Assembly (NCBI GenBank): GCA_903959815.1 | Contig: CAJBYM010000109.1 | Coordinates: 2,229 to 66,228 of the forward strand | Direction: 5' to 3' | Length of the DNA: 64,000 bases | From: Candidatus Omnitrophota bacterium | GTDB lineage: Bacteria; Omnitrophota; Gorgyraeia; Zapsychrales; Fredricksoniimonadaceae | Shown here: positions 8,647-58,756 of the stretch, one piece after another | Position numbering within the stretch: the stretch's first letter is position 1 | Layout: each line of letters opens with the position of its first letter | The notes under the pieces: model-generated | The model's database searches: none | The model's input: only the letters and a program-made list of their open reading frames with translations | What the model was told of the DNA's origin: nothing | Translations under genes and position numbers: made by a program

Positions 8647-8652
8647 ATAAGA

Positions 8653-9689: not shown

Positions 9690-10459
9690 CAGCTCCCCCA
9701 GAATGTCAAAATGATCTTGGTCAGGATCGTATTGGAGACGATGACCCCGACATAACACATCGCTACCGCTTCCGTCGTATAACGGCCGACACCCAGCGAC
9801 CCGCCTGTGGTAAAGAACCCTTTATAAGAACAGGTCCATCCGATGAGGATCGCAAAAAAGAACACTTTCACAAACCCCGTAAAGAAATCCACGAACCCGA
9901 GGCATTGGATCGTCTGATTCACATAATAGATCGATGGCACATTCGCTTCATGCACGCCGATCATATATCCACCCAAGATCCCCACAAGCTCTGACATAAC
10001 AACCAAGATCGGTAATACGATCAAACACGCAAGAATACGGGGCACAACAAGAAATTCCACAGGATCAACGCCCATCGTACGTGTGGCCATGATCTGGCTG
10101 TTAACACTCATAGTGCCGAGCTCAGCTGCCATACCTGCCCCTGACTTGCCTGAAAATACAAGCGCCGTAAAAACAGGGCTGAGTTCGCGCACCAAAGATA
10201 AGGCCACAAGCTGGGCGATGAATTCCTTTGCACCAAAGCGCTCCATCATAACCCGTCCCTGCATGGCGAGAACAGCGCCGGAAGCAAACGATGCCAGCAT
10301 CACAATAACAAGTGAGCGCACCCCCTGTTCAAAGACCTGTTTGAACACTTCACCCCAGCGCACACGCCCTCTCAAAACGCAAACAAACACGTCCCCCAGG
10401 AAGCATGCCCCGCGTCCTAATGATGCCACACCATTTCTGATCGGAGTCACAATGAACAT
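9689..10459 (-). CDS. mlaE: ABC transporter permease MlaE
   Basis: MlaE/Ttg2B-like permease, 256 aa. Confidence 0.85.
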   Translation of the reverse strand: MFIVTPIRNGVASLGRGACFLGDVFVCVLRGRVRWGEVFKQVFEQGVRSLVIVMLASFASGAVLAMQGRVMMERFGAKEFIAQLVALSLVRELSPVFTALVFSGKSGAGMAAELGTMSVNSQIMATRTMGVDPVEFLVVPRILACLIVLPILVVMSELVGILGGYMIGVHEANVPSIYYVNQTIQCLGFVDFFTGFVKVFFFAILIGWTCSYKGFFTTGGSLGVGRYTTEAVAMCYVGVIVSNTILTKIILTFWGS

Positions 10460-22612: not shown

Positions 22613-22619
22613 GGTATTC

Positions 22620-23537: not shown

Positions 23538-24730
23538 TAAATCTTTCCGATAAACTGTTTCCCATATTCTATGCACCGCTCGATCGCCCCTGCATCCGGC
23601 TCCCACAGATTCTTGATGCCTTCATCCACAACCTCAAAACCAATATCCCTGAGCGTATCATTCAAACGCTTCTGTGCTTCTCCGGACCAGCCGTAACAGC
23701 CAAACGCCGCCGATTTCTTGCCTTTGAATGAAAGCCCGCGCATTTCTTCAAGAAAAGCACCGACAGATGACAGCGCGCATTTATTGTGCGAAGGAGAACC
23801 TACCAGCACCGCCTTAGAACGGAACACCTCGGTCGCCACATCATTCTTGTCAGACTTAGCAAGATTCATCACATTCACAACAACCTTTGGATCCGCCAAA
23901 CGAATACCTTTGGCGATCTCTTCTGCCATCACCCGCGTACCACCCCAGATCGTGTCGTAAACGATCGCAACACGATTTTCCTGATACATATTGGCCCACG
24001 CCGTATATTTCTCCATAGCCTTAGGTACATCCGCCCCGCGCCAGCACGCACCATGGCTCGGACAGATCATATCGATCGGAAGGCTAAGCGTCTTCAACTC
24101 TTTTAATTTTGCATCAACAGACTTTCCCCACGGGGCAATGATATTTGCATAATACTTCATGTCCTCTTCCCACAGGATCCACGGATCAACCAGATCCGCC
24201 CAGACAAGATCTGTGGCCAGATGCTGGCCGAATGCGTCTGTTGAAAAAAGAATATTATCACCCGTAAGATATGTGAACATGGTGTCCGGCCAATGGAGCA
24301 TGGCCGCCTCAATGAACATGAGCTTCTTGCCATGGCCAATATCCAGCGTATCCCCCGTTCTCACGGGCTTGAAATTCCAATCCTGATGAAAATGGCCTTT
24401 AAGCGATTTCACACCGTTATGCGTACAGTAAACCGGAACATGCGGAATAAGCGCGATCAGATCCTTGAGCGCACCTGTATGGTCGATCTCAGCATGATTA
24501 ACAACAATGGCATCGATCTTCTGGATATCAACCGTCTGGGAAAGCTCACGCAAGAACTCCTCGGTGAAAGGACTCCATACGGTATCGATCAAAACGGTTT
24601 TTTCTTCACGGATCAAATACGCGTTATAATTCGTACCATAATGCGTCGAAAGCTCATCGCCATGGAACATGCGAAGCTCCCAATCCACCTTACCCACCCA
24701 ATGAACATTATTCTTGATCAATCTGGCCAT
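23537..24730 (-). CDS. Flavodiiron protein (FprA/ROO-type O2/NO reductase)
   Basis: Metallo-beta-lactamase-like diiron motif NHAEIDHTG and a C-terminal flavodoxin-like domain. Confidence 0.9.
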   Translation of the reverse strand: MARLIKNNVHWVGKVDWELRMFHGDELSTHYGTNYNAYLIREEKTVLIDTVWSPFTEEFLRELSQTVDIQKIDAIVVNHAEIDHTGALKDLIALIPHVPVYCTHNGVKSLKGHFHQDWNFKPVRTGDTLDIGHGKKLMFIEAAMLHWPDTMFTYLTGDNILFSTDAFGQHLATDLVWADLVDPWILWEEDMKYYANIIAPWGKSVDAKLKELKTLSLPIDMICPSHGACWRGADVPKAMEKYTAWANMYQENRVAIVYDTIWGGTRVMAEEIAKGIRLADPKVVVNVMNLAKSDKNDVATEVFRSKAVLVGSPSHNKCALSSVGAFLEEMRGLSFKGKKSAAFGCYGWSGEAQKRLNDTLRDIGFEVVDEGIKNLWEPDAGAIERCIEYGKQFIGKI

Positions 24731-34034: not shown

Positions 34035-35366
34035 TCAAAACTTATAGATGACCGCCGACATGATACGGTTCGCGTCACCCTTGCTGCCATCAACCCACTC
34101 CGTCTTAAAATACTGATACTCAAGACCGACCTGCAATTCCTTGCTCAGGCTATATTTGATATTGGTATAGGTCGTCGTATTGTATTCGTAAACATTCGAC
34201 GCATCCGAAGTTGTGCCAACCCCCGGAGCAGCAACAGGATTAATAAACGCATCATCATTGACCATGTCAATCCCGGCCCCTAGGTTCATCTCGACTTTCT
34301 TGATCGGATTATACGTCAACTCTGCAAATCCGCCTTTAACACGAAAAGGCTTCTTATCCAAACCGCTTGCCAAATAAGAAGTCATGCCCAGCGTACTACC
34401 CCCCAAAAAGTCATCCAACTTGGCACCACTGAAGCCTTCGGCCTTGAACGCCAACCAATCAGTCATTTTGAGCGTCATGCCAAAAGCCACCGCCCATAAT
34501 GAATGATCCTGGTCACCCGACGCTTCGACTTCACCTAACAACCCACTCACACCAAATGTCGCGGGCATGCCCATGATCTTGGTCTCATAACCCGTATATG
34601 TGGCCAAGACAGGGACTCCTGAATTCTCATTGGTAACATCATCTGTATCCAAGATGCCGGTCTTGCTGGTCAATTTCCCGCCCCAGACATCGCCCCATTT
34701 GTTAACAATGTGAACCTGCGGATGGCGATAACCCACATTACCCTGCCCCCATAAAATATCCGGATTCAATATACTCGGATTGATCGGCGCGAAAATATCC
34801 CAATTCTGGCCCGCATTAACAGCCCATTTCGGATAATCCAGCTGCACATAGGCATGCCTTAAACGCGGCGTATACGTCGCAGTCTGCGAATTCGCAAAAT
34901 CTATTTCGATCTTGCCGCTGACCTTTCCCCCGTCCTCAAGGTCCGGCCCCTTAACATTAAATCCAAGGCGTGTATCATTCCCGGCCATCCCGAACTCACT
35001 CTGACTGCTACCATTTTCCTTGGGTGCGACTCTGGGCGCATTGCTACTGGCCATATCAGAATCCGCATAAGACCCCTGGGCCATGATAAAACCATACATC
35101 TCAACATCCAACTTGGTCTTCAAGAAATTCACTGCAGGTGTCGCCGCCGCAGGAGCAGCCGCAACCTGGGCAGTCGCCGCAGGCATTGCAGGTTTTTCCT
35201 TAAGCGCCATTACTTCTGCTTTTAAGGATGCATTCTCTCTTTCAAGAGCCTCAACACGCTTGAGGATATCATCGAGCGTAGCCTGGGCACATGCAGGCAA
35301 GGCAAACCCCACGGTACAAATGCCAACCATGATCAATGCCAGAAGCCTTTTCATGAGTTTCGCCAT
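34035..35366 (-). CDS. Outer membrane porin with an N-terminal coiled coil (DcaP-like)
   Basis: Signal peptide, heptad coiled coil (LDDILKRVEALERENASLKAEVMAL), beta-barrel body, C-terminal aromatic residue. Confidence 0.6.
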   Translation of the reverse strand: MAKLMKRLLALIMVGICTVGFALPACAQATLDDILKRVEALERENASLKAEVMALKEKPAMPAATAQVAAAPAAATPAVNFLKTKLDVEMYGFIMAQGSYADSDMASSNAPRVAPKENGSSQSEFGMAGNDTRLGFNVKGPDLEDGGKVSGKIEIDFANSQTATYTPRLRHAYVQLDYPKWAVNAGQNWDIFAPINPSILNPDILWGQGNVGYRHPQVHIVNKWGDVWGGKLTSKTGILDTDDVTNENSGVPVLATYTGYETKIMGMPATFGVSGLLGEVEASGDQDHSLWAVAFGMTLKMTDWLAFKAEGFSGAKLDDFLGGSTLGMTSYLASGLDKKPFRVKGGFAELTYNPIKKVEMNLGAGIDMVNDDAFINPVAAPGVGTTSDASNVYEYNTTTYTNIKYSLSKELQVGLEYQYFKTEWVDGSKGDANRIMSAVIYKF

Positions 35367-38228: not shown

Positions 38229-39731
38229 CTATCTTCTGCGGCCTTTAAGCGAAGACTTTACATTCCCACCTTCGCGAGCACGTTCAAAATCAATATGTCC
38301 CTGATAAGGATCCAGGTCCGTTAACTTAACACGCACATTCTGTCCGACCGAAAGCCTTTCACCACCACCCATGATCCGGCCCTCAACCGGCGGCTCAACG
38401 AGGCGCACATAAATCCCTTTATCCGAAGATCCTGTGATGATGCCGTCAAAAACCTCACCGATCCGACCTCTCATCAAGACCGCGGCCGCAACCTTTTGCA
38501 TGAACCGCTCGACCTTCTTGGACATCTTGTCACGGTCTGTGCACCAGGCCGCATGCTCGATCAATTCTTTGCGAGAATACGGACAAGCTTTTCTGTCCAG
38601 CACCGCTTTCAAGATCCGCTGGATAATAAGATCCACATACCGGCGGTTGGGCGCCGTCGAATGGGTATAATCCGAAACAGCCAGACCAAAATGGCCCACC
38701 GGAGCCTTGCCCGGCTCCAGCATCATGTACTCGCCAGGACCCAGCAATTTCACAATGGTGAGCGACAGGTCAGGAAAATGAACACTGTCCGCAGACTTCC
38801 TTTTAAGAAGGAACTTGGACAAAGCCTTCACATCCGCTTCAGCCGGAAGGCGTGTTCCCAGATCAGCTGCAACATCAACAATCCCGGGCCAGTTCTTAGG
38901 AACGCGCACAATGCGCTGGATCACAGGCACATGTGCTTTCTCCAGAAATTCCATGACCGTACCATTGGCCGCGATCATAAAATTCTCAATGACATGGTGT
39001 GCCCTATCCTCGCTGGGTAAAACCAGCCCAACGACCATATCATCTTTCATGACCGTCTTGGCTTCCAGACTTTCCAATTCCAGAGCCCCCTTTTCCATGC
39101 GAAAATTCTTAAGACGACTGGCCGCTTCATCCTGCAAACGAACCTGTTCTTCCAACCCCGGAATATCCGTAAATGCCTGCGGGAAAGGACCATGGCCGTC
39201 AAGCCAGGCACCAACCTCTTCATAAACCAGTTTCGCCCTATTATGGACCAGCGCAAGATAGATCTTCCCGCGCCGCACATCGCCGTTCTTCAAAACCACA
39301 AATTCAATCACGATCGCAGGCCGGTCCTCACCTGCACGCAAAGAGGTGAGGTCCGTTGACAAACGCAAAGGCAACATGGGAAACGTTTCAATGCCCGTAT
39401 ATACCGACGTTGCATTATGCTCGGCATGGCGATCAATTTCAAAACCCCGTGGAACAAAGACGTCAACATCCGCTATCGCGATCTTGATCAAAATCTCCTG
39501 ATCAGCGCCACGCTCGGCATATTCCAGTTGGTCAAGATCAAGTGAATCCACATTATCAATCGACGACCACAAAAGTCCACGCAGATCCACCCTGCCAGAG
39601 CGCAGCATTTTCTTGGGATCAAGGCGATCAACTTCACGCATCATATTTTTGGAAAATTGATATCGAAAACCATAACGTTCCATAGCCTGGTGAGCAATAG
39701 CATGAAGATCAATGTCACGGAATGGAGACAT
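38229..39731 (-). CDS. RNB-domain exoribonuclease (RNase II/R family) with a C-terminal S1 domain
   Basis: RNB catalytic-region pattern and a C-terminal S1-like domain. Confidence 0.8.
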   Translation of the reverse strand: MSPFRDIDLHAIAHQAMERYGFRYQFSKNMMREVDRLDPKKMLRSGRVDLRGLLWSSIDNVDSLDLDQLEYAERGADQEILIKIAIADVDVFVPRGFEIDRHAEHNATSVYTGIETFPMLPLRLSTDLTSLRAGEDRPAIVIEFVVLKNGDVRRGKIYLALVHNRAKLVYEEVGAWLDGHGPFPQAFTDIPGLEEQVRLQDEAASRLKNFRMEKGALELESLEAKTVMKDDMVVGLVLPSEDRAHHVIENFMIAANGTVMEFLEKAHVPVIQRIVRVPKNWPGIVDVAADLGTRLPAEADVKALSKFLLKRKSADSVHFPDLSLTIVKLLGPGEYMMLEPGKAPVGHFGLAVSDYTHSTAPNRRYVDLIIQRILKAVLDRKACPYSRKELIEHAAWCTDRDKMSKKVERFMQKVAAAVLMRGRIGEVFDGIITGSSDKGIYVRLVEPPVEGRIMGGGERLSVGQNVRVKLTDLDPYQGHIDFERAREGGNVKSSLKGRRR

Positions 39732-39742
39732 GACAAACCTTT

Positions 39743-40570
39743 CTAAAAAGACACCTTAACGATTTCGTTGGGAGCATGCTTCACCGTACGCGCATATCCC
39801 ACAAGCGGTTTGCCAAACGCCATCACGTAACCCATAACATGATCTTGCGGGATCCCAAGACTGATCTTAAGCTCCGGCAAAACGACATTGATCAACCATT
39901 TTGCCAAACCAGTCCAAACCGTTCCCACACCCAGGCTTTGGGCAAAGAGCTCGAAGTACGCGAGCGCGATCAAACAGTCCGGCTCAGGTGCCGGGCAATT
40001 CTTGGGAGCAGATGCGATTACAAGATGAGGAGCCCCACGAAAAATAATGTCCACCTTGGCTGTTTCCCAAAGTTTCACATGATCAGCAAAGAATTCCATA
40101 CCCGGCGGCAACTTGCCTTCACGCACACACTGGGCCAAAAGATCCATGGCCTGTGTACGGAACTTATCCATCATCTGACGATTATCAATGACCGTGAAGC
40201 GCACCTGCCGCACATTCTTTCCCGTCGGTGCATAAGAGGCCACGTCCAAAAGCCGCTGTATGAGTGCAGGATCCAGATCTTCTTTCTTATAGCGACGGAC
40301 AGAACGGCGTGCTTTGATCAACCGTTCGATCTTGTCCGCATGCGGAAGTTCCCCGGTCACAGGCAAACATTCGGCCGGATCAACTCCCAGGATCGAGATC
40401 GCCGCCGTCGGACAGATCGCCAGGCAATGCTGGCAACGGATGCATTTGGGGCCATTCTGACGCGCAATGGACGGATGTCCGTCAACCATGTCGATGATAC
40501 TAACTAAACAATCTGCCGCGCACTGGCCACAAGAAATGCAACGTTCCTTATTAACAACGAACTTGATCAT
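39743..40570 (-). CDS. 2x[4Fe-4S] ferredoxin domain fused to a nitroreductase-family domain
   Basis: CISCGQCAADC and CIRCQHCLAICP cluster motifs, then a nitroreductase fold. Confidence 0.8.
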   Translation of the reverse strand: MIKFVVNKERCISCGQCAADCLVSIIDMVDGHPSIARQNGPKCIRCQHCLAICPTAAISILGVDPAECLPVTGELPHADKIERLIKARRSVRRYKKEDLDPALIQRLLDVASYAPTGKNVRQVRFTVIDNRQMMDKFRTQAMDLLAQCVREGKLPPGMEFFADHVKLWETAKVDIIFRGAPHLVIASAPKNCPAPEPDCLIALAYFELFAQSLGVGTVWTGLAKWLINVVLPELKISLGIPQDHVMGYVMAFGKPLVGYARTVKHAPNEIVKVSF

Positions 40571-40579
40571 AGTGCCTCC

Positions 40580-40765
40580 TTAATGCTTCACACCTAACTT
40601 TTCCAGAATGGTCATCATGGGACACCAATTCGTAAATGCCGACTGGAGAAGATTCAGCCCCACAAACGCCGTGAACCATAACCACATCGGGCTAACATAA
40701 TATGCCAACACCAGGCTGAGTAAAATAAAAAGTCCGGCCATACCTCTTAATATCCGCTGGATCAT
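40580..40765 (-). CDS. DUF2892 (YgaP-TM-like) small membrane protein
   Basis: 61 aa, two TM helices, NWCP motif. Confidence 0.6.
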   Translation of the reverse strand: MIQRILRGMAGLFILLSLVLAYYVSPMWLWFTAFVGLNLLQSAFTNWCPMMTILEKLGVKH

Positions 40766-43700
40766 AACGACCTCCCTATTTTTGGTTTCATAACCATATA
40801 ATATATCACCGGCACGGCCGTCCGTGAAAGGATCGTCGATGCCACTTCACCTGCGATCAGCGATAAGGCCAACCCCTGAAAGATAGGATCAAACAAAATA
40901 ACCGACGCGCCAACCACAACCGCGGCGGCCGTAAGGAGCATCGGACGGAAGCGTTTAGCCCCCGCATCGATCACAGCTTCCTCGATCGCCATCCCTTCTT
41001 TCATCCTCAGCTCAATAAAATCCACGAGAATGATCGAGTTGCGTACAACGATCCCGGCACCCGCGATCATGCCAATCATCGAAGTAGCCGTAAAGAATGT
41101 ATTCGTCATCCAGTGCGCGGGCAGAATGCCGATAAGTGTAAGCGGGATCGGTAACATGATGATCCATGGCGTCTTAAACGACTGGAACCATCCCACCACC
41201 AGCGTAAAGATCAATATCAGGACGATCGCAAAAGCGATCCCCAGGTCACGGAAGACTTCATACGTGATCTGCCACTCGCCATCCCACTTCAAAGACCAGC
41301 GCTCATCGGTCTGCGGCTGATCCGTCAATAAAAGATCTGCTTTCTTTTGCATAGCAGGATTGGGCTCAGGCACAGCGATCTTCTCAAAACCAGGATTCAG
41401 ATCAAGCATCGCATAAACCGGGCTGTCCACCTGACCATCCACATCCGCGATCACATAAGAAACACGTTGCAGGTTCTTATGATAGATCGTGTAATCTTTA
41501 TGCCCCGACTCCACCTCGACGAGGTCTTTCAGCGGGATCCGATTGCCAAAACGCGCCAGCACTGTCATTCCCAAAACAGCATCAAGGGTCTGTCGTTTAT
41601 CTTTGGATAAACGCAAGAGGATCTCAACCGGCTCATTCTCACCGGAAAGATGCGCCAGATCCGCCTTCGTTCCGAGTAAAGAATCCGCAACGACCTGAGC
41701 CAGCGCGTTGACCGCAACACCATTTAAAGAAGCCTTTTGCTTGTTGATCTTAAGCCGATATAACTTTTCCTGACGCCCCACATAACTATCAATATCTGTA
41801 ACGCTTGAACTATTTTTAAAAAGAAGCTCAACATCACTCGCCAGCTTGCGCTGCCCCTCAAGCGACGGACCATAGATCTCAACGACCATGGTCGAAAGGA
41901 CCGGAGGTCCCGGCGGAACTTCGGCAACCTGCACATGCCCGCCTAACTTATCCACGATCTGATGGATCTTCGGACGAACAGCTTTAGCAATATCATGGCT
42001 CTGCAGTTTACGATCTTTCTTCCCCACAAGATTGACCTGAAGGTCTGCCTGCCAAGGCTTGGAACGCAAGAAATAATGCCGCACAAGTCCGTTGAAATTA
42101 TACGGCGCACTAGTACCAATATAAGCCGTAATATTACTGACCTCGGGGACATCATGCATCACCGCCGCGATCTCATCAACCACCTTCTTTGTTCCTTCAA
42201 ACGTTGTTCCTTCAGGCATATTCAAAACGACCTGAAATTCATTTTTATTATCAAAAGGCAGCATTTTCATTTTAACAAGCTTAAGCGGTACCATCATCAC
42301 AACCAGGCCCAATGCCCCGATAAGTCCCATGATAAACCACTTACGAACAACGGCGTTATAGATCAGCGGCTGCATATAGGAACGGTACACGCGCGTCAAC
42401 AGATCATCCTTCTCCCCTTCGCCATGCCCTCGTAACTTACCCTCGGCATGCGCCCGCCCCAAGATCCTGTGCGCGGCCCAGGGTGTCGCCACGAACGCAA
42501 CGATCATGGAAAATACCATGGCCATACTCGCCCCGATCGGGATCGGACGCATATAAGGACCCATGAGGCCGCTGACAAATGCCATGGGCAAGATCGCCGC
42601 AATGACCGTAAGTGTCGCCAAAATAAGCGGGCTCTGGATCTCCTGAACAGCCTCAACGATCACATCGATCAAGGCCCTTCCTTTATTTTTGGCCATACGC
42701 AAATGCCGCACGATATTCTCAACACCGACGATCGGATCATCCACAAGAATGCCGATGGAAAATATCAACGCAAAAAGCGTAATGCGGTTAAGTGTAAACC
42801 CCAAGAAATGAAAACCGGCCAGCGTCAACGACAGGGTCATAGGAATAGCAATTGCAACCACACCCGACTCGCGCCAACCGAGCGTAAGCGCCATCAAAAG
42901 CGTCACACCTAAAATAGCCAGTGCCATGTGAAACAAAAGTTCATTTGATTTCTCATCCGCCGTCTCACCATAGTTGCGCGTGACCGCATAAGACACCGCC
43001 GCAGGGATCATGCTTCCTTTAACACCTTCAACCCTTTTAAGGATCCTTTCACAAACATGGGAGGCATTCGCGCCTTTCCTTTTAGAAACAGCCAGCGTCA
43101 CAGCTTCAAAAACACCTTTGGCCCCCGTCTTATCTGCCGGACCAAATTGAAAATTGACCGCAGTCTCATCTTCATCCGGTCCATCAACAACGGTCGCCAC
43201 ATCCTTCAAATAAACTTCACCCCCCTGGCTTACACCCACGACCACATTCTCAAGATCCTCTTTAGAGCGAAAAAAACCGTCGGACTCAACAGAAACAAGC
43301 TCTGGCCGGCTTTGCAAATGCCCTGCAGCTATCTTGACGTTCGAACGCCGGATAAGCTCGCCGACCTCGAGCGTATTTAAGAACCGTTCATTGAGCTTCT
43401 GTTCATCTAAGACAACACGAAACTGCCGCTTGCGTCCGCCTGTGATCTGCGTCTCGGAAACATCCGGAATAGCACTGACAATATTCTGCAGATCTGCCGC
43501 GACCTTGCGCAAACTAACCGCATCCATCGTCGCACTATGAAACGTCAATGTCATAACAGGAACATCGTCGATCGAACGGATCTTGATCAGCGGCTGAGAA
43601 CCTCCCATGGCCAAAAGATCCAAATTCGAATAAACCTTGGTATAAAGTTTGATCAGGCTCTTTTCCACATCCTCGCCAACCTTAAAACGAACCGTAATGA

Positions 43701-43992
43701 TCGCTCCGTCGGCCTGGGTCATGGAATAAACATACTCAACCCCGGGGAGTTCCCACAGTTTTCGCTCACCCACATTAACAATGCGCCGCTCGACTTCCTC
43801 GGCGGTCGCTCCAGGATAGGATACAAAGATATCAAAGACAGGAACCGCGATCTGCGGCTCTTCTTCCCGCGGAAGATTGATGATAGACATCACACCCAGG
43901 AATATAGAGAAACCAATAACAAGAGGCGTCACTTTAGAACGGATAAAAGCACCAACAATCCGCGATATAAGACTTTCCGATCCCATGCTCAT
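40762..43992 (-). CDS. RND efflux pump, AcrB/CzcA superfamily
   Basis: 1076 aa, 12 TM helices and two large periplasmic loops, ACR_tran pattern. Confidence 0.9.
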   Translation of the reverse strand: MSMGSESLISRIVGAFIRSKVTPLVIGFSIFLGVMSIINLPREEEPQIAVPVFDIFVSYPGATAEEVERRIVNVGERKLWELPGVEYVYSMTQADGAIITVRFKVGEDVEKSLIKLYTKVYSNLDLLAMGGSQPLIKIRSIDDVPVMTLTFHSATMDAVSLRKVAADLQNIVSAIPDVSETQITGGRKRQFRVVLDEQKLNERFLNTLEVGELIRRSNVKIAAGHLQSRPELVSVESDGFFRSKEDLENVVVGVSQGGEVYLKDVATVVDGPDEDETAVNFQFGPADKTGAKGVFEAVTLAVSKRKGANASHVCERILKRVEGVKGSMIPAAVSYAVTRNYGETADEKSNELLFHMALAILGVTLLMALTLGWRESGVVAIAIPMTLSLTLAGFHFLGFTLNRITLFALIFSIGILVDDPIVGVENIVRHLRMAKNKGRALIDVIVEAVQEIQSPLILATLTVIAAILPMAFVSGLMGPYMRPIPIGASMAMVFSMIVAFVATPWAAHRILGRAHAEGKLRGHGEGEKDDLLTRVYRSYMQPLIYNAVVRKWFIMGLIGALGLVVMMVPLKLVKMKMLPFDNKNEFQVVLNMPEGTTFEGTKKVVDEIAAVMHDVPEVSNITAYIGTSAPYNFNGLVRHYFLRSKPWQADLQVNLVGKKDRKLQSHDIAKAVRPKIHQIVDKLGGHVQVAEVPPGPPVLSTMVVEIYGPSLEGQRKLASDVELLFKNSSSVTDIDSYVGRQEKLYRLKINKQKASLNGVAVNALAQVVADSLLGTKADLAHLSGENEPVEILLRLSKDKRQTLDAVLGMTVLARFGNRIPLKDLVEVESGHKDYTIYHKNLQRVSYVIADVDGQVDSPVYAMLDLNPGFEKIAVPEPNPAMQKKADLLLTDQPQTDERWSLKWDGEWQITYEVFRDLGIAFAIVLILIFTLVVGWFQSFKTPWIIMLPIPLTLIGILPAHWMTNTFFTATSMIGMIAGAGIVVRNSIILVDFIELRMKEGMAIEEAVIDAGAKRFRPMLLTAAAVVVGASVILFDPIFQGLALSLIAGEVASTILSRTAVPVIYYMVMKPKIGRSL

Positions 43993-45368
43993 AATCCACC
44001 CTCCTGGCCTAAAGCGCTCAAAACCCCTTCATTCAGCTGTCCTGTAAGAAACAGAAGCCTTCCTTGCGAAAGAAAGGCTCCCATTAAAGCTTTTTCATAA
44101 CCTTCAATGGTTTGCAAATACGCCCGACGAGCATCCATAAGATCGGCCACCGATTTACGGCCTTCACTATAAAGAGGCGCTGTGAGCGATACCGCTTCTT
44201 TAGCATCCTCGCTCATGGCTCTAAGCACCGGAAGGTTATCCCGAAATGCATCATAGCGGGCTGTTTCCCCGGCAATGGCACGGGCGACCGTATCTTTCAA
44301 GATTTGAATGTCATGCGCCAGACGTTCTTTCAACGCCAGCGCTTCTTTCACCCGCCCGCTACGCGACGGGTCAAAAAGCGACATCCGCGCTTTAACCCCA
44401 ACAGTAAAGTTACTCCCCCCCGCATCATGGATATCACGACGATTATTGGTCGCATCCCCAAACGCCATCAAACGCGGCAGTGCCGACGCCTTCTCACGCG
44501 ATAATTCAAGATCAGCCGCCTTAACACGCAAGTCCAACGCTTTCAGATCCGGACGCGACACACCCGCTTCACGCACCAAGGACTCCACCTCACGACTGAG
44601 CACTGTCTTTTCCTGTAATATATTCACGAGCTCCCAGGTTGTTCCCATCGGCTCACCCATCAGAATGTTCAACAAGACCATCATGGCTTTCTTCTGACGG
44701 AAGATCTCATTTTTCATGCGCGTCATATCCCCGAACATCACACGCGCCGCATAATAATCAGCCCCTAGGATCATACCTTTATCCTTGAGATCTTTAGCCT
44801 TTTGAAGATCTTCATCTGCACTTTTTTGAACTTCATCCACGATCGTTGCCAAACGCTCCAGAACCAACGCATTCAGATACGCATCCTGTGCGGTCAACAA
44901 AGCTTCCATCCGGGTAAAATCCTCATCTGCTTCGGTCGCCTTCACCTGTTCCCGTGCGGCACGTGTACGATAGATCGTCTGCATGGCATCGATCAAGGGA
45001 AGCTCCACATGAACGCCGCCCGCAAGATCACGATGATGGCGAGGTGTATTCAATCGGTCTACTTCAAAATCTGATGATGCAAAACGTTCCTGCCGAAGTT
45101 TCATACCAAAAACATTCACCGGATCATCAGACTCCTGATAGTCCGCAGAAAGATCGAGCGATGGCCAAAACCCTGCTCTGGCCTGCATTTGACGGGCTAG
45201 CGCGGCCTGAACATCCGTATGCGCCGCTTTTAATTGAGGATAATAATGCAGAACTTTTTCTGAGAATTGTGCAAAAGTCAGGATTGATGCCGCTTCTTGA
45301 GCCTGAACCACCGGCATAAAGAAAAGAATCATTCCGATGATGATATTAAAAGAAAGAGCCTTCTTCAT
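43989..45368 (-). CDS. TolC-family outer membrane efflux protein
   Basis: Signal peptide, two OEP repeats, 459 aa. Confidence 0.85.
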   Translation of the reverse strand: MKKALSFNIIIGMILFFMPVVQAQEAASILTFAQFSEKVLHYYPQLKAAHTDVQAALARQMQARAGFWPSLDLSADYQESDDPVNVFGMKLRQERFASSDFEVDRLNTPRHHRDLAGGVHVELPLIDAMQTIYRTRAAREQVKATEADEDFTRMEALLTAQDAYLNALVLERLATIVDEVQKSADEDLQKAKDLKDKGMILGADYYAARVMFGDMTRMKNEIFRQKKAMMVLLNILMGEPMGTTWELVNILQEKTVLSREVESLVREAGVSRPDLKALDLRVKAADLELSREKASALPRLMAFGDATNNRRDIHDAGGSNFTVGVKARMSLFDPSRSGRVKEALALKERLAHDIQILKDTVARAIAGETARYDAFRDNLPVLRAMSEDAKEAVSLTAPLYSEGRKSVADLMDARRAYLQTIEGYEKALMGAFLSQGRLLFLTGQLNEGVLSALGQEGGL

Positions 45369-45646
45369 CGCGACACCTCCCCTTTAGACAAGACCTTGAT
45401 CAATTCAACAACTTTTGGCGCAAGAACCCGATAACAGGTTTTCACTCCCTCTTTTCTGATCCCCACCACTCCCGCAGCTTTTAAAACACCCAGATGCTGA
45501 GACACCGTCGATTGCGGCAGCTTAAGCGCCTTGACCATCTTATCCACATGACATTCACGGCCCAAAAGGCCCTCGGCCATGCGCAAACGTACGGGATGCG
45601 CCAAAGCTTTCAATACTTCACTTTCCCGGATATAATCCATCGGCAT
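45365..45646 (-). CDS. ArsR/SmtB-family transcriptional regulator
   Basis: LKALAHPVRLRMAEGL winged-helix motif, 93 aa. Confidence 0.85.
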   Translation of the reverse strand: MPMDYIRESEVLKALAHPVRLRMAEGLLGRECHVDKMVKALKLPQSTVSQHLGVLKAAGVVGIRKEGVKTCYRVLAPKVVELIKVLSKGEVSR

Positions 45647-45650
45647 AGAA

Positions 45651-45697
45651 AAACCCCTTTCATCGTATAATTGCGATATTACGATAAAAGGGGTTTT
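45651..45697 (-). promoter_or_regulatory. 47-bp near-perfect palindrome overlapping the arsR Shine-Dalgarno; candidate operator and/or terminator
   Basis: AAACCCCTTTCATCGTATAATTGCGATATTACGATAAAAGGGGTTT. The right arm contains the AAAGGGG Shine-Dalgarno of arsR. Confidence 0.5.
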
Positions 45698-45735
45698 CTG
45701 TCAAGTGCTATCCGTCAACCGGACCGATCGCCGCT

Positions 45736-46275
45736 TTATGCGATCTTGGGCGGTTCAGGAAAATCTACTTCCGTCTCGGCAATGTGATTAAAATAATTCG
45801 TGAAAAGATTAAACGTAACCCAGGCGATCACCTCGATGAGCGCTGCATCCGAATAGCCGGCTGCTTTAAACGCATCAACGACCTTGCCCAACGGACGGCC
45901 TTTTTTCTCGGAGATCTCCACCACAAGCTCCAGGAGCGCATCCATCTTCGGATCTTGGCTTATCCCCTGACGCGCTTCAAGTGTCTCTTCATCCGTAAGA
46001 CCTGACATCTTGCCGATAACCGTATGAGCTGCCACACAATAATCACACGTGTTATTCTGACCAACAGCCAACGCGATCGCTTCGATCTCCTTGGGCGTTA
46101 GTACACCTTTCTTCAAACCAAAGTTATACGCCAAGAGCGCATGCAACGTACTCGGCGAATGCGCCATGGTCGCATAGATATTAGGGATCTTCCCCATCTT
46201 GGCCTGGATGCCTTCGAGGACTTTTTTCTGCTCTTCATTGGCAGCATCCAACTTAACGGGTTCAATAACTGGCAT
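45736..46275 (-). CDS. AhpD-like/carboxymuconolactone decarboxylase family protein
   Basis: CDYCVAAH motif. Start set at ATG 46275, which has an AAGGA Shine-Dalgarno. Confidence 0.75.
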   Translation of the reverse strand: MPVIEPVKLDAANEEQKKVLEGIQAKMGKIPNIYATMAHSPSTLHALLAYNFGLKKGVLTPKEIEAIALAVGQNNTCDYCVAAHTVIGKMSGLTDEETLEARQGISQDPKMDALLELVVEISEKKGRPLGKVVDAFKAAGYSDAALIEVIAWVTFNLFTNYFNHIAETEVDFPEPPKIA

Positions 46276-46490: not shown

Positions 46491-49118
46491 ATGCCCATGA
46501 ATAAAATACAAAAAAGAAACGGCGAAATCGTTGATTTCTTGCCAGAACGTATCGCCGATGCCATCCGCAAAGCCACTGAAGCCACGCGCCAAAACAACCC
46601 GTCACTTAACCTGGATACAGCTTTCATCCCTGCGATCACCGATGATATCATTGGTGAACTGAAGAAACATTATGCCGCATCCGAACGCATCCCCAACATT
46701 GAGCATATCCAGGATATCGTTGAACAAAAACTGGTCGAAAACGGGCACTTCGAGATCGCAAGGAACTACATCCTTTACAGATCCCATCACGCCCAGCTGC
46801 GCATCGAAGCCAGACTTGAACAGCTAAAGAAGATCGACAATAATCTCCTTAAAGTCCAGAAACGTAATAAGAAGACTGAAGTGTTTAAAGTCGACAAACT
46901 CCGCAAGACATTCGCCCTCGCCGCCAAAGGATATGAAAAAGAATGCCCGTTTGAACAGCTCTACGAACGCCTGAAACTTACGATCAATGACAATATCCTA
47001 ACGACCCAGATCAACAAGAACATGCGCAAGGTCGCGCTCGATCTGGTCACAGTCAAGAATATCTCGTGGCAAAATATTGCCGGCCGGCTCTATCTGATGG
47101 ACCTTTACAAACAAGCCTGCCGCAACCGCGTTATGGAACCTGCAAAGATCTACGCGGCTGAGGAATTCAAAAAACTTTTTGACACCTATATTAAAGAAGG
47201 CAAGTATTCACAGGATTTCTACACCTACTATACCGCAGAGGACATCCTCAAAGCCGGCGCCGCGATCGATAAAGAACGCGACTTCTCCTATATCTATTCC
47301 ACAGTTCTGGCCTTTGACCGGCGGTATCTGCTGAATCCTAATAAATATGTGCGCGAACTGCCCCAGGAAATGTACATGGCGATCGCCTTGTTCCTGGCCA
47401 TCCCTGAACCTCAGGAAAAACGCCTGGCTATCGCGCTGAGCATTTACGAACTTACCTCGACCCAACAATTATCCCTTCCCACACCAACGCTCTTAAACGC
47501 CCGGACCAATTTTCATCAGCTCTCCAGTTGTTTCAAACTCAATGTCAACGATGACCTGCGCGCCATCTATCATGCGCTGGAAAACATGGCCCAGATCTCC
47601 AAATTTGGCGGTGGCGTCGGTGCTTATCTGGGGCACATCCGTTCACGCGGAGCTTATATCCGTGAAATGAAAGGCGCGTCCGGTGGCGTGATCCCCTGGG
47701 TGCGGCTGATCAACAACACCGCCAGTGCCGTCAACCAGCTCGGTTCACGGCTTGGAGCCATCTCACCCACACTTGACATCTGGCACCGCGACATTCTGGA
47801 CTTTCTCAACCTGCAGACCGAAACGGGCGACATCCGATCCAAAGCATTTGATATCTTCCCGGCGATCTCGATCCCGGATTTGTTCATGCGCCGGGTAGAA
47901 GCCGGAGAGAACTGGACCCTTTTCGATCCTCATGAAGTGCATCAAAAGAAAGGCCGGCGGATCGAGGATCATTTTGGGAAAGATTTTGACACCTTCTATA
48001 AAGAATGTGAACAAGACCCGACTCTAGAGTTCAAAAATCCGATCAACGCCAAAGAACTCATGAAACGGTTCCTCAAGACAGCTGTTGAAACAGGCATGCC
48101 CTATGTCTTTTTTCGTGATACCGTCAATCGCTTAAACCCCAACCGTCATGCAGGCAACATCTACTCCACACAGCTATGCACCGAAATATGCCAGAACACA
48201 GCTGACGCTGTGTTCAATGGGGAAACACTTGAGAATGGAAATGTCAATCTATCCTACACGCCCGGAGATACTGTTGTCTGCAACCTCGCCTCGATCAACG
48301 TGGCGAAGGTCAACACACCCGAACAGATCCGGCGTGTGATGCCCATTGCGCTGCGCGTTCTGGACAATGTCATCACCCTGAATTTTTATCCCATTAAAGA
48401 AAGCGAGATCACGGCCAAGAAATACCGCAGCATCGGGCTCGGGTTCATGGGGCTCGCCGAATACCTAGCCTGCTCAGGACTCTCGTATGATTCCGCAGAA
48501 GCCCGTGCTCATGTGAACACACTCTTCGAACAATACGCCTACGCGACACTCTACGGCTCATGTGAACTGGCCAAAGAACGCGGCGCCTATGAACTTTTTG
48601 AAGGCAGTGACTGGTCCAAGGGACTGCTCTTCGGACGGGACACGTCATGGTATAAGGCCAACAGTAAAATGGCGGATCAGTGGGCCTCTCTGATCAAAGA
48701 TATCCAAAAGAATGGCGTACGTTTTGCTTATCACCTAGCACCGGCCCCCAACACCTCAACATCTGGCGTCGTTGGAACAACAGCCGGGCTACTGCCGATC
48801 TACAAGAAGTTCTTTGTAGAAACAAATGCACTGGCCCCGATCGTAACCGTCGCGCCCAACCTTTCACCGAAGAATTTCTGGCATTATAAAGAATACGTCC
48901 ACATGGACATGAACGATGTGATCGACATGATCGCAACAATATACCCGTGGGTTGACCAATCCATCTCCTTCGAGTGGCTCATCAACCCGGCGAACACATC
49001 TCCGGCAGAACTTTATGGCTATTACATGAAAGCGTGGAGATCTGGAATTAAAACAGTCTACTACGTGCGCAGCATGAGCGGCGAACTGAAAGAAACCTGT
49101 GTCAGCTGCAGCGGCTGA
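46491..49118 (+). CDS. nrdA: Class I ribonucleotide reductase alpha subunit
   Basis: N-terminal ATP-cone, active-site QLCTEICQ, C-terminal CVSCSG redox tail. Confidence 0.9.
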   Translation: MPMNKIQKRNGEIVDFLPERIADAIRKATEATRQNNPSLNLDTAFIPAITDDIIGELKKHYAASERIPNIEHIQDIVEQKLVENGHFEIARNYILYRSHHAQLRIEARLEQLKKIDNNLLKVQKRNKKTEVFKVDKLRKTFALAAKGYEKECPFEQLYERLKLTINDNILTTQINKNMRKVALDLVTVKNISWQNIAGRLYLMDLYKQACRNRVMEPAKIYAAEEFKKLFDTYIKEGKYSQDFYTYYTAEDILKAGAAIDKERDFSYIYSTVLAFDRRYLLNPNKYVRELPQEMYMAIALFLAIPEPQEKRLAIALSIYELTSTQQLSLPTPTLLNARTNFHQLSSCFKLNVNDDLRAIYHALENMAQISKFGGGVGAYLGHIRSRGAYIREMKGASGGVIPWVRLINNTASAVNQLGSRLGAISPTLDIWHRDILDFLNLQTETGDIRSKAFDIFPAISIPDLFMRRVEAGENWTLFDPHEVHQKKGRRIEDHFGKDFDTFYKECEQDPTLEFKNPINAKELMKRFLKTAVETGMPYVFFRDTVNRLNPNRHAGNIYSTQLCTEICQNTADAVFNGETLENGNVNLSYTPGDTVVCNLASINVAKVNTPEQIRRVMPIALRVLDNVITLNFYPIKESEITAKKYRSIGLGFMGLAEYLACSGLSYDSAEARAHVNTLFEQYAYATLYGSCELAKERGAYELFEGSDWSKGLLFGRDTSWYKANSKMADQWASLIKDIQKNGVRFAYHLAPAPNTSTSGVVGTTAGLLPIYKKFFVETNALAPIVTVAPNLSPKNFWHYKEYVHMDMNDVIDMIATIYPWVDQSISFEWLINPANTSPAELYGYYMKAWRSGIKTVYYVRSMSGELKETCVSCSG

Positions 49119-49135
49119 CCTAAAGGAAACTAACC

Positions 49136-50164
49136 ATGAAAAAGAATCTTATCTTTAATCCCAACGGCGATGATAACGTCGCCCAGCGCACGATCATTAA
49201 AGGCAATACAACGGGGCTTTTTAACTTGAACGCCGTTAAATACCCCTGGGCCAAATCCATGTACCAGGTCATGATCGGCAATTTCTGGGTGCCTGAGAAA
49301 GTGGGTGGCCTGGGAGAAGATGCGACGATGTACCAGGGGCTATCAGCGGCCGAACAACGCGCCTATAAAGGGATGATCTCGTTTCTGACCTTCCTCGACA
49401 GCATCCAGACGGTCAATCTGCCGAACTTCTCCGACTACATCACCTCACCGGAGATCAATCTCTTATTGTCCATCCAGTCTTTCCAAGAAGCCATTCACTC
49501 ACAAAGTTATACAACGGTCCTCGAAACCGTGGTGGATGCCAAAGAAAGAGAAGAGATCTACTACTTCTGGCGCGAAGACAGTGTTCTTCTTAAGCGCAAT
49601 CAATACATCGGAAGGATCTACCAAGACTTCCAGGATAATCCGAATGACGCCAACTTCTTCAGAGGCCTCATCGGCAATTACCTTCTGGAAAGCTTGTACT
49701 TCTACAATGGCTTCGCCTTCTTTGACAACATGGCCTATGCCTCAAAGATGGTCGCGACCGGACGCATGATCAACTACATCCGCCGGGACGAACTCATCCA
49801 CGTCGCCCTTTTTGCCAACATCCTCAAAGAGATCCGCCGCGAGTTTCCCGACATGTTCGACGTGCCCATGATCACAGACATGTTCCGTACGGCCGTTGAT
49901 CAGGAGATCCTTTGGACCAACCATATCATCGGTGACGGCATTCCCGGGATCACAACCATGACAACGGAGATGTACACCAAGTGGCTCGCCAATACACGAC
50001 TGGAGGGACTGAATTTACCGCCCCTGTTCCCCGAGGTGGTCACAAGTCCTTATAAACATTTGGAAGCTATGGCGGATAATAACAGCGAGAAGACCAACTT
50101 CTTCGAATCGACGGTCACGAACTACACGCAATCGAGTTCCATGAACGGGTCGTGGGATTTCTAA
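49136..50164 (+). CDS. nrdB: Class I ribonucleotide reductase beta subunit
   Basis: Diiron ferritin-like motifs EAIHSQSY and RDELIHV. C-terminal ...WDF. Confidence 0.9.
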   Translation: MKKNLIFNPNGDDNVAQRTIIKGNTTGLFNLNAVKYPWAKSMYQVMIGNFWVPEKVGGLGEDATMYQGLSAAEQRAYKGMISFLTFLDSIQTVNLPNFSDYITSPEINLLLSIQSFQEAIHSQSYTTVLETVVDAKEREEIYYFWREDSVLLKRNQYIGRIYQDFQDNPNDANFFRGLIGNYLLESLYFYNGFAFFDNMAYASKMVATGRMINYIRRDELIHVALFANILKEIRREFPDMFDVPMITDMFRTAVDQEILWTNHIIGDGIPGITTMTTEMYTKWLANTRLEGLNLPPLFPEVVTSPYKHLEAMADNNSEKTNFFESTVTNYTQSSSMNGSWDF

Positions 50165-50167
50165 ACT

Positions 50168-50647
50168 TTAAGCAAGCCGGGATTCCTTGATCTTGAGCAA
50201 TTTTTCAAGATGTCCCTCTTCTTCCTTAAGGATCTTTTTAAAGACTTCCTGCACAGCGGAAGGACAAAGCCCTGCGATCTCCGTATAAATACGAACCGCC
50301 ATTCTTTCATTCTCAATGCCAATATGTAAGGCTTTACTGAGATCCAAAGAATTGATCTCCATTGGTTCAGATCCGGTCATGGACTTTTTCAAACCATCGA
50401 GCATCCTGTTTAATATTTCCACAAAGTTGATCGAAGAACTGAAATTCTGGTTCTGCATGGATAAAGACTGTCCGATCCTCGCTAGATCACGTTTATGAAC
50501 GACCTCATCTTCAGCCAAAGACAAAAAGACCTCCTTCACCGCAGGAATATGAGACAGCCGTGCGAGCTTGCGATAAAACATAACACCCGCTTCTTCGACA
50601 TCGATGGCCATGCGTAAGATAAGATCTGCCGATTGTAGCTCAGACAT
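50168..50647 (-). CDS. Rubrerythrin-like/ferritin-like diiron protein
   Basis: Two E..EXXH-type motifs (EDEVVHKRD, EEEGHLEKL). AGGAGG Shine-Dalgarno. Confidence 0.65.
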   Translation of the reverse strand: MSELQSADLILRMAIDVEEAGVMFYRKLARLSHIPAVKEVFLSLAEDEVVHKRDLARIGQSLSMQNQNFSSSINFVEILNRMLDGLKKSMTGSEPMEINSLDLSKALHIGIENERMAVRIYTEIAGLCPSAVQEVFKKILKEEEGHLEKLLKIKESRLA

Positions 50648-57548: not shown

Positions 57549-58022
57549 TCAACCTGCGGACTGCTGTTCCCGCAACATGGCCTGAATAATACCCCGATGC
57601 ATTTTACTATCCTGAACAAGCCTCGCAAAAATAAGCTGCAACTTGCTCGTACCCCCCTGAACAACGTCAAAATACGATCTTTCGATCAAGCTGTCCTCAA
57701 GGTCCTTGGCGATGGATAAAACCGCAAGTAAAGACGGCTTCTTACGCTTCACACTCTCGATCTCCCGTTGAACATAGTTCATGACAAAATCAATGGCCTG
57801 AACAGAAAATTTTTCATTGTACTGGATATCTCCGCCCTGCTCCATCATATCCCGAAGACCTCTTAAGATCTTCGCATGTTTACGCTCTTCCGCAACAAGG
57901 TCTTCCCAAAAACGACGATGCTCAGGAAATTCCTGGGCATAAAAACCATAGAGATCGCCGACTAAATCCTCATTCACGGCCATCTTTTCAATCGCATGCA
58001 ACGGATCATTATCCTGTGACAT
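57549..58022 (-). CDS. Ferritin-like superfamily protein (tentative)
   Basis: Helical protein with an EERKH motif. ATG at 58022 with a GGGAG/AAGGGA Shine-Dalgarno. The track start at 58049 is a TTG. Confidence 0.5.
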   Translation of the reverse strand: MSQDNDPLHAIEKMAVNEDLVGDLYGFYAQEFPEHRRFWEDLVAEERKHAKILRGLRDMMEQGGDIQYNEKFSVQAIDFVMNYVQREIESVKRKKPSLLAVLSIAKDLEDSLIERSYFDVVQGGTSKLQLIFARLVQDSKMHRGIIQAMLREQQSAG

Positions 58023-58045
58023 TTTTATCCCTTCTCTCCCGATGA

Positions 58046-58756
58046 TCAAAACGACCAGTTAAGAAGCACCATGAATTCCATGGGTTCTTTATCCGCATTA
58101 TAATTGGCAAGGCCTATCTGCAAGCCATCCAAAGAATCCGTCCCGTTCACAAGGCCGATCTGAACACCGTGCATTTCCTTGGCGTAATTCCAGATCCCGC
58201 CTACCTGAACACCTTTCATCGTTCCATCAACATGATTCACAGCCCCTGACTGCAAACCCGAAAAGTCACCTTTGATGATATTCAAACCTCCAACCTGATA
58301 GCCTGTAAAACGACCGCTCACAACATTAACAACACCAAACTCAATACCATGAAAAAAGCCTTCGTTCCAATTAAAAACTCCCAGCTGCACACCCGTCGTA
58401 TCGGCTTTCTTAAGATTGATCACAGCTGCGTCTATTCCCACAGAACGGCCTGCCGCATAATCTAAAAGGCCAACCTTGATGCCCTGGGATACACCGTCGG
58501 TCCAATTCACAGTGCCCAATTCGATACCTTTCATATCACCCGTTGTCTGATTCCACACGCCCAGGGAAATCCCTTGGATCTCTTGACTGCGGGAATACGG
58601 GATGCTCAATCTTAAACCAACAATGGCGTCTTGTGCCGGCGCTATCTGAACAGGGTTAAAGATCCCCACCTGAAGCGGTTTTGTATCCTGTGCGAACGTT
58701 AAACCTGCAAAGCCACAAAGAAAAATAACGCATAGTGCTAAAATCTTCTTCACCAT
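58046..58756 (-). CDS. Secreted protein made of about 11 tandem 15-residue repeats
   Basis: Signal peptide MVKKILALCVIFLCGFAGLTFA (ATG 58756, GGAGG Shine-Dalgarno). Repeats GISLGVWNQTTGDMK / GIELGTVNWTDGVSQ / GVQLGVFNWNEGFFH and so on. C-terminal NWSF. Confidence 0.7.
   Translation of the reverse strand: MVKKILALCVIFLCGFAGLTFAQDTKPLQVGIFNPVQIAPAQDAIVGLRLSIPYSRSQEIQGISLGVWNQTTGDMKGIELGTVNWTDGVSQGIKVGLLDYAAGRSVGIDAAVINLKKADTTGVQLGVFNWNEGFFHGIEFGVVNVVSGRFTGYQVGGLNIIKGDFSGLQSGAVNHVDGTMKGVQVGGIWNYAKEMHGVQIGLVNGTDSLDGLQIGLANYNADKEPMEFMVLLNWSF

Follow-up and report, generated by a model that had tools for sequence, protein, structure and literature searches.

The stretch of DNA analysed here, called the window below, comprises 64,000 nucleotides of a Candidatus Omnitrophota bacterium (contig CAJBYM010000109.1, positions 2,229 to 66,228). 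It contains an operon for a resistance-nodulation-division (RND) efflux pump, in which the pump gene directly follows the gene of an outer membrane factor (OMF), the exit channel, and in which a gene for the periplasmic adaptor is missing. We conclude with high confidence that this pump belongs to a distinct RND subfamily associated with the small membrane protein DUF2892, that the adaptor gene was lost from the operon in the Omnitrophota branch, and that the operon is expressed under ArsR control with translational coupling. Relatives of the pump exist at at least 597 genome loci, spreading over Omnitrophota, Verrucomicrobiota, Acidobacteriota, Desulfobacterota, Nitrospirota, Bacteroidota, Cyanobacteria, Proteobacteria and others, and the best 120 matches listed in the protein search are all at least 64% identical to the pump. 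We annotated 80 genome loci and 11 metagenome loci with the hidden Markov models (HMMs) of the families, and took the counts over the loci with complete flanks, that is, 57 loci at 46-56% identity and 11 loci at 64% identity or more; the related genomes of the latter branch are metagenome-assembled genomes (MAGs). At 46-56% identity, most of the pumps have an adaptor gene directly upstream (56 of 57), an OMF gene (46 of 57) and a DUF2892 gene within 3 kb (39 of 57). In the branch at 64% or more, the adaptor is found at none of the loci (0 of 11; Fisher p = 7.8e-12), while the OMF stands beside the pump in all of them (11 of 11) and DUF2892 lies within 3 kb in 9 of 11. In 10 of the 11, the OMF and pump genes even overlap (ATGA) or lie at most 14 nt apart. 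The absence of the adaptor gene is a conserved trait of the whole branch and not an oddity of a single genome. The initial annotation of this region had also considered an RND family that acts without any adaptor; since the adaptor is present in 56 of the 57 relatives, an adaptor-independent family is not the explanation.

In a neighbour-joining tree rooted with AcrB, where the pump family stands on a long branch away from AcrB, the adaptor-less branch forms a monophyletic group with an Elusimicrobia locus (L008), to which all the adaptor-bearing members are sister. The Chlorobaculum locus L072 falls within the adaptor-bearing members, has adjacent OMF and RND genes without an adaptor and represents an independent loss. 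Within Omnitrophota the pump is largely vertically inherited, because its identity ladder parallels that of an ABC-F housekeeping protein of the window, whose named relatives come from Omnitrophota only and thereby place the host in this phylum. The same parallel weakens a horizontal spread of the adaptor-less cassette, which we had tried as an argument for its self-sufficiency. Some of these loci have peculiarities of their own. The Chlorobaculum MAG (L072, 6290-12196) contains a CsoR/RcnR-family (CstR-like) repressor, the OMF, the RND and a metallo-beta-lactamase-fold protein, and no DUF2892 was detected in it. In the Elusimicrobia MAG (L008, 2-5557), the C-terminal end of an unrelated second RND lies directly upstream of the OMF (RND-OMF-RND), and the contig ends at this upstream RND, so that an adaptor gene could lie farther upstream there. 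In an Omnitrophota locus (L085, 7751-13222) an RNase T-family gene stands between OMF and RND, with glutaredoxin and thioredoxin genes in the flanks, and the pump of locus L020 has neither an OMF nor an adaptor as neighbour.

The features of the operon and its surroundings are the following, in the order of transcription:

45736-46275, minus strand: AhpD/CMD-family thiol-redox protein with a CDYC motif (CMD 3e-15; TIGR01926, peroxidase-related, 3e-17)
45650-45704, minus strand: arsR promoter and putative ArsR operator (promoter scan and direct reading)
45365-45646, minus strand: ArsR/SmtB-family repressor, 93 aa (Pfam HTH_5 7e-9)
43989-45368, minus strand: OMF, a TolC/OprM-type channel, 459 aa (Pfam OEP 5e-41, two repeats)
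40762-43992, minus strand: RND inner-membrane permease, 1076 aa (Pfam ACR_tran 3e-147)
40580-40765, minus strand: DUF2892 (YgaP-like_TM, PF11127) protein, 61 aa (1e-14)
39743-40570, minus strand: ferredoxin-nitroreductase fusion, 275 aa (Nitroreductase 4e-21, Fer4_9 2e-7)
38229-39731, minus strand: RNase II gene (rnb), co-directional, 11 nt after the nitroreductase gene

The junctions arsR/OMF, OMF/RND and RND/DUF2892 were read as ATGA overlaps, and a Shine-Dalgarno sequence of the GGAGG type precedes each of them; it follows from the sequence that these four overlapping genes are translated together. The initial annotation had described the gene order arsR-OMF-RND-DUF2892-nitroreductase on the minus strand and the 4-nt (ATGA) overlaps; the open reading frames (ORFs) with their Pfam domains bear out the former, and the junction sequences the latter. 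The gap before the nitroreductase gene, given there as 10 nt, is 9 nt in the sequence, and the range 40580-45646 covers arsR to DUF2892 and leaves outside the nitroreductase which its title names. The 11-nt spacing onward to the RNase II gene makes the tightly spaced co-directional string longer than had been stated. The AhpD/CMD gene lies immediately upstream of the arsR promoter and is a neighbour in the closest relatives only (179 aa in L001 and L089). An identical RND protein was read on 8 contigs, and in all the places shown (4 of 4), which come from different samples, the gene order is the same; the operon order is therefore not an accident of assembly, and an assembly artefact was ruled out.

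The central claim of the initial annotation, that no adaptor gene exists in the operon, holds in every search we made. The overlap of OMF and RND leaves zero space for a gene between them. We built an adaptor HMM from 48 proteins lying between OMF and RND in the distant relatives of the pump, which are true adaptors (HlyD_D23 1e-17 to 2e-21; HlyD_3). In the six-frame translation of the 64-kb window its best match had E = 0.011, in an ORF without an HlyD domain. Pfam found no HlyD-type domain in 20 of the larger ORFs of the window, including every ORF of 300-560 aa, and no adaptor gene is present in about 10 kb past either window end. An adaptor hidden in the window is ruled out by the six-frame search with the family HMM and the Pfam search of the 300-560-aa ORFs, and an adaptor just beyond it by the roughly 10 kb scanned on each side. 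The 447-aa ORF at 4006-5349 on the plus strand matches neither Pfam nor the adaptor HMM; it is one of the few plus-strand genes and is a called gene in public assemblies, with an adjacent 140-aa ORF. In general, the earlier observation is confirmed and strengthened, while the interpretation given to it is partly supported.

For the pump itself, the AlphaFold model (predicted local distance difference test score, pLDDT, 81; predicted template modelling score, pTM, 0.77) reached Foldseek template modelling scores of 0.84-0.85 to AcrD, the best match, and 0.80-0.83 to AcrB, AdeB and MtrD. The full-length architecture of the AcrB type is present, with 12 transmembrane (TM) helices and two large periplasmic loops containing porter and docking subdomains, and the protein aligns full length with MexK and CmeB chains. 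The proton relay (D418, D419, R984, R1014, T1021) is kept in at least 93% of both branches; its counterparts in AcrB are D407, D408, K940, R971 and T978 (TM4/TM10/TM11), with R984 an Arg for Lys. The named NCBIfam subfamilies RND_permease_1, RND_permease_2 and TIGR00915 gave 393, 349 and 294 bits, below their cut-offs of 1250, 1250 and 940. The pump is HAE1-like and not HME, and is a member of a separate, strongly conserved subfamily. The idea of an HME or czcCBA-type pump, as the initial annotation had it, has to be given up: it reached 229 bits in the CusA/CzcA model TIGR00914, whose cut-off is 701, and its structural model superposes best on the HAE1 pumps AcrD, AcrB and AdeB. In the family alignment, the periplasmic domain has no invariant Met or Cys and only 3 invariant His. 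Near-invariance throughout the family was seen at 131 periplasmic positions, of which 44 are charged; they cluster in PN1, PC1 and PC2 and include loops equivalent to the AcrB switch loop. Such a pattern fits one specific polar substrate better than multidrug export. At RND residues 632-643 and 690-701 (about 41890-42099 in the window) stand the family-invariant motifs NFNGLVRHYFLR and AEVPPGPPVLST. In the alignment they correspond to the AcrB switch loop and to the PC1 loop at AcrB 662-676, and they include a family-specific LVRHY insertion. With the exception of the DN arm loop (residues 222-237), no periplasmic part of the model has a lower confidence.

The OMF has a Sec signal peptide and no lipobox. 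It aligns with E. coli TolC end to end with small indels only, its sole sequence match with a solved structure is OprJ, and the TolC-family models TIGR01844 and TIGR01845 gave 90 bits against 225 and 40 bits against 210. The tips of its hairpins carry the motifs KGMILGAD and EGRKS, the latter invariant within the branch. We searched both proteins for signs of compensation for the missing adaptor. The RND has no branch-specific indels of 2 or more residues, and the OMF has no internal ones, only a 5-residue C-terminal tail being different, so that neither a compensating insertion in the docking domain nor a lengthened channel is seen in the alignments. The docking subdomains have only 7-8% invariant positions and are the least conserved parts in both branches. 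Only 14 RND sites are conserved but different between the branches, and they are evenly spread over the domains, by which a clustering of branch-specific substitutions in the docking domain was rejected. The relative variability of PN2 and PC2 is slightly raised in the branch (ratios 0.88 and 0.98 vs 0.74 overall), which is a weak signal. As a marker of adaptor independence, the tip motif is ambiguous: it is changed in the branch, yet it stays within the range of TolC, whose second tip is G-T-R, and it is unchanged in the Chlorobaculum channel (L072), which keeps a hydrophobic tip. At the level of sequence, these data on indels, substitutions and tips neither demonstrate nor exclude direct docking of the pump on the channel.

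The arsR gene is preceded by a strong sigma-70-type promoter (-35 TTGACA at 45704-45699, 17-nt spacer, -10 TAATAT at 45681-45676; 10 of 12 positions match). An inverted repeat, TATCGTA (45686-45680) - N12 - TACGAT (45667-45662), straddles the -10 element and the transcription start, and an outer 11-bp inverted repeat is formed by AAAACCCCTTT (45697-45687) and AAAGGGGTTTT (45660-45650). Of the two repeats, the outer one recurs only in the 88% relative; the ribosome-binding site of arsR lies within its right arm. The TATCGTA/TACGATA pair is found upstream of arsR in L089 and L086, and a single half-site (TATCGTA or ATCGTA) in L093 and L094, always beside a TTGACA -35 element. We infer that the palindrome is a putative operator bound by ArsR, and the recurrence of half-sites at the same place in four other loci of the branch supports autoregulation. 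As for the signal, metal sensors of the ArsR family bind the metal through an alpha3 CxC motif or an alpha5 D/H/H/E motif. By inspection, neither is there in this repressor: its alpha3 sequence ECHVD has a single Cys and a single His, and the His/Asp/Glu ligand set is missing from alpha5 (KVVELIKVLSK). The generic HTH_metalloreg model NF033788 (74 bits vs cut-off 55) is the only one it passed, the BigR equivalog model gave 55 bits against a cut-off of 155, and the best solved relatives are Rv0081, PagR, BigR and HlyU, which are non-metal members. The name metalloregulator used by the initial annotation is therefore unproven. The five repressors known from the adaptor-less branch all keep Cys32 and Cys71, and a thiol-based signal seems plausible.

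The DUF2892 protein matches PF11127 with 54.5 bits (gathering score 25.3). Its hydropathy is continuous over about residues 5-46, with 19-residue window means of about 1.9 falling to about 0.8, and this stretch, broken by Ser-Pro at residues 25-26, may be read as two helices, the second ending in a conserved NWCPM motif. No N-terminal rhodanese domain of the YgaP type is present in the 61-aa protein, which is the membrane domain alone. The earlier view of DUF2892 as an associate of the pump is well supported: it lies within 3 kb of the pump in 48 of the 68 loci with full flanks, across phyla including cultured bacteria, its identity across Omnitrophota is 72-89%, and one natural fusion exists. 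In this fusion (P0017/L087, 10001-13450; 1149 aa, on 4 contigs), DUF2892 is joined to the C-terminus of the pump by a 25-aa linker. Since the C-terminus of the pump is cytoplasmic, the fusion puts the N-terminus of DUF2892 in the cytoplasm, and with it the NWCPM motif and the Cys-rich tail that is frequent in these proteins. The fusion gene adjoins TauE/DUF1634, metallo-beta-lactamase and an ACR3-ArsC fusion.

Among the neighbours recurring in the family are thioredoxin, a CoA-disulfide-reductase-rhodanese fusion, rhodaneses, OsmC and peroxiredoxin, as well as TauE/DUF1634, metallo-beta-lactamase, C_GCAxxG, glutaredoxin and ACR3/ArsC. The clusters of cultured members contain a flavoprotein resembling sulfide:quinone reductase (SQR) together with rhodanese, DUF2892 and ArsR. 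Three of them (L095, L100 and L101) are located on plasmids or chromids of Pseudanabaena, Azospirillum and Novosphingobium and also hold an SCP2 protein; the best NCBIfam match of their 426-443-aa flavoprotein is type III sulfide:quinone reductase, well below the cut-off. In Azospira suillum, H2S induces an operon with RND, SQR and the adaptor (membrane fusion protein) as well as a DUF2892 gene (PMC5358917), and a survey reported RND genes beside ArsR regulators responding to sulfane sulfur (PMC12423496). Judged by this association, the substrate would be reactive sulfur or a thiophilic metal(loid).

How the pump works without an adaptor gene beside it is the main question, and we slightly prefer that the adaptor is supplied in trans, with a probability of roughly 0.4. 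To our knowledge, every RND efflux system studied in double-membraned bacteria needs an adaptor for bridging and for activation of the pump, and neither the pump nor the channel shows structural novelty; these two reasons are behind the preference. AcrD, which has no adjacent adaptor gene either, uses AcrA and TolC. According to this reading, the repressor would sit on TATCGTA-N12-TACGAT over the -10 element and be released by a thiol-reactive signal, upon which the four overlapping genes would be translated together. The pump, driven by proton motive force, would expel one small charged or thiophilic compound through the channel, for example a reactive sulfur species or a soft metal(loid), as the conserved residues and the neighbourhoods suggest. 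The adaptor, still needed because pump and channel show nothing new in structure, would be borrowed from another locus as AcrD borrows AcrA, which is the weakest step, and DUF2892 could assist the pump from the cytoplasmic side, as an accessory or by handling the substrate, which the fusion suggests.

Several points weigh against this reading. The adaptor in trans is assumed and was not seen in the sequence covered, which holds no adaptor gene in about 84 kb of contig and in 12-23 kb at each of the 11 related loci. Usually channels are shared and adaptors stay with their pump, and to keep a dedicated coupled channel and give up the adaptor is the reverse of this pattern. The adaptor-less state is stable across a deep branch, and arose again in Chlorobaculum (L072) with the same OMF-RND adjacency. 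In the channel, the second hairpin tip is G-L in most adaptor-bearing relatives (41 of 49), and G-R/K-K in all the adaptor-less ones (9 of 9). The Cys pair of BigR/SqrR is absent from the repressor, which has Glu at the position of BigR Cys42 and ends before the second Cys (C108). A DUF2892 protein of 78% identity stands alone in a Pseudodesulfovibrio MAG (L103, 10001-10189), with no RND within 10 kb on either side; DUF2892 is therefore not an obligate subunit of the pump, a role we had considered and which this homologue weakens. Finally, it is guilt by association that points to sulfur or another thiophile as the substrate.

The strongest alternative is an adaptor-free pump of two components, in which the RND trimer of the Omnitrophota/Elusimicrobia branch docks directly on the tips of its dedicated OMF; we regard it as a tentative but real possibility. 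The distribution itself argues for it, with the adaptor at 0 of 11 loci vs 56 of 57 and the channel retained and abutting or overlapping the pump gene in 10 of 11, as does the lack of an HlyD-type gene in about 84 kb of contig. Borrowing does not easily account for the loss of the most partner-specific part when the most promiscuous one stays in cis, and the depth of the branch, the second, independent OMF-RND pair in Chlorobaculum, the altered channel tip EGRKS that is invariant in the branch and, as a weak signal, the raised variability of PN2 and PC2 all point in the same direction. That pump and channel can come close together in nature is known from Borrelia, whose adaptor BesA has no hairpin (PMC3807786, PMC8277102). 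Against direct docking, the pump and the channel have the same lengths as those of adaptor-bearing relatives, the docking subdomains show no raised conservation and no excess of substitutions specific to the branch, and the G-T-R tip of TolC puts the tip change within the adaptor-dependent range. We also know of no experimentally studied HAE1 or HME pump that works with an OMF without an adaptor. The evidence comes from MAGs and covers part of each genome, and in the literature we found nothing on RND pumps with DUF2892 or YgaP, nor on adaptor-less RND-OMF pumps. A more complete version of this idea seems only slightly less probable: a two-component pump of Omnitrophota, of the sister Elusimicrobia and independently of Chlorobaculum would derive from a three-component ancestor, with the trimer docked directly on its own channel at unchanged protein lengths, and would export reactive sulfur or thiophilic compounds with a Cys-bearing DUF2892 as partner.

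It is improbable that the pump and the channel are uncoupled, the RND moving its substrate into the periplasm, as the adaptor-less RND proteins HpnN and MmpL would suggest as a model, and the substrate leaving by separate diffusion via the channel. No adaptor gene was found in the sequence covered, and the RNase T gene between OMF and RND in L085 and the pump without either neighbour in L020 make the physical link look less strict in some genomes. However, OMF and RND remain translationally coupled in 10 of 11 loci, the docking domain known from tripartite pumps is complete in this one, and TolC-type channels are closed at rest and opened by contact with a partner.

The ferredoxin-nitroreductase fusion had been taken by the initial annotation as coupled to the pump. 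Its domains are clear (PF00881 76.5 vs 23.5 bits; Fer4_9 31.7 vs 27 bits; the ferredoxin domain is of the 2x[4Fe-4S] type), and in the window the gene is probably co-transcribed, being preceded by the 9-nt gap with a Shine-Dalgarno sequence and no terminator. Its position after the pump is shared by the window and the 88% relative L089 alone, and it is found at none of the ten other sampled loci of the branch (L005-7, L085-87, L090, L091, L093, L094). At the other family loci, a single weak nitroreductase match exists on the opposite strand in L014, and the gene is not recurrent in the 80 family loci. It is a lineage-specific passenger outside the conserved module, and a reduction coupled to export has no comparative support. 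A detoxification module controlled by a metal sensor, with the pump exporting what the nitroreductase makes by reduction of a nitro, quinone or metal compound, is very unlikely. In its favour are the tight junction in the window, the same order in L089 and the weak match near the pump in L014. Against it, the gene is missing from the ten other branch loci and not recurrent as just described, the same tight spacing runs on into the unrelated RNase II gene, and the repressor has no recognisable metal site.

Comparison with known systems shows what is special in this operon. The nearest are adaptor-bearing members of the subfamily in cultured bacteria, namely Pseudanabaena sp. ABRG5-3 (plasmid, WP_126391410.1), Azospirillum thermophilum (WP_109331205.1) and Novosphingobium sp. 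EMRT-2 (WP_136957948.1). Their pumps are 40-52% identical over the full length, with DUF2892 and ArsR beside and often a TolC-family channel, but unlike the window they have an adaptor directly upstream of the pump and often the SQR-like flavoprotein with rhodanese; no experimental characterisation of such members was found in the literature. E. coli AcrD shares the lack of an adjacent adaptor gene, is the best structural match and handles hydrophilic, charged substrates, whereas acrD stands alone with its channel also in trans and about 21% identity, and the window has a coupled channel in cis. In AcrZ-AcrB, a very small membrane protein is likewise attached to an RND, as adjacency and fusion suggest for the window. 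AcrZ differs in having one helix, an unrelated sequence and a gene elsewhere, while DUF2892 has two helices and a Cys-Pro motif and also occurs stand-alone; the picture of DUF2892 as an AcrZ-like accessory subunit that would bind to the pump is a functional analogy.

The combination of an ArsR-family regulator with a DUF2892 membrane domain is also seen in E. coli ygaVP, where YgaP is a rhodanese with a DUF2892 anchor, and the BigR/SqrR regulons resemble the family neighbourhoods in their rhodanese, SQR-like, TauE and metallo-beta-lactamase genes. In contrast to both, DUF2892 of the window has no rhodanese, and its repressor departs from BigR at Cys42 and at the C-terminal end as described. 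The czcCBA and cusCFBA operons have the OMF first, a regulator of a metal family nearby and a small accessory protein (CusF in cus), but always an adaptor (CzcB, CusB), while the pump of the window fails the CusA/CzcA model and has no invariant Met/Cys cluster. BesABC of Borrelia burgdorferi is a natural departure from adaptor-mediated tip-to-tip assembly; there BesA is present and lacks only the alpha-hairpin (PMC3807786), whereas in the window no adaptor gene exists.

A deep, conserved branch without the adaptor gene that keeps the coupled channel, with sisters that have all three, amounts to a test set up by nature of how indispensable the adaptor is, and reconstitution can draw on matched proteins of one family with and without an adaptor. 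Apart from this question, the analysis delimits a large RND subfamily, so far uncharacterised, with members in a dozen phyla or more, including the cultured genera Azospirillum, Novosphingobium, Vibrio, Pseudanabaena and Flammeovirga, whose hallmarks are the DUF2892 mini-membrane protein, ArsR-type regulators and neighbours related to sulfide and thiol stress. DUF2892 gets a concrete functional setting in this way, and an export route for reactive sulfur species, whose transporters are poorly known, is suggested.

As for the host, the window contains MlaD/MlaF/MlaE, a TamB-domain protein and a Porin_4 protein with a signal peptide (8053-10459, 21329-22888, 34035-35366), which indicates a conventional outer membrane. 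Genes for oxygen and oxidative stress are dense for a presumed anaerobe (23537-24730, 46491-50647, 57549-58049; L001 2779-3825), and include a flavodiiron-type protein (ODP metallo-beta-lactamase and flavodoxin), class I ribonucleotide reductase alpha and beta, rubrerythrins, hemerythrin and the AhpD-like protein beside the operon. Scans of the 64-kb window for tRNA genes and Rfam matches gave none. The GC skew of the window is uniformly and strongly negative, from -0.10 to -0.24 in every 2-kb bin, and most of the genes are on the minus strand.

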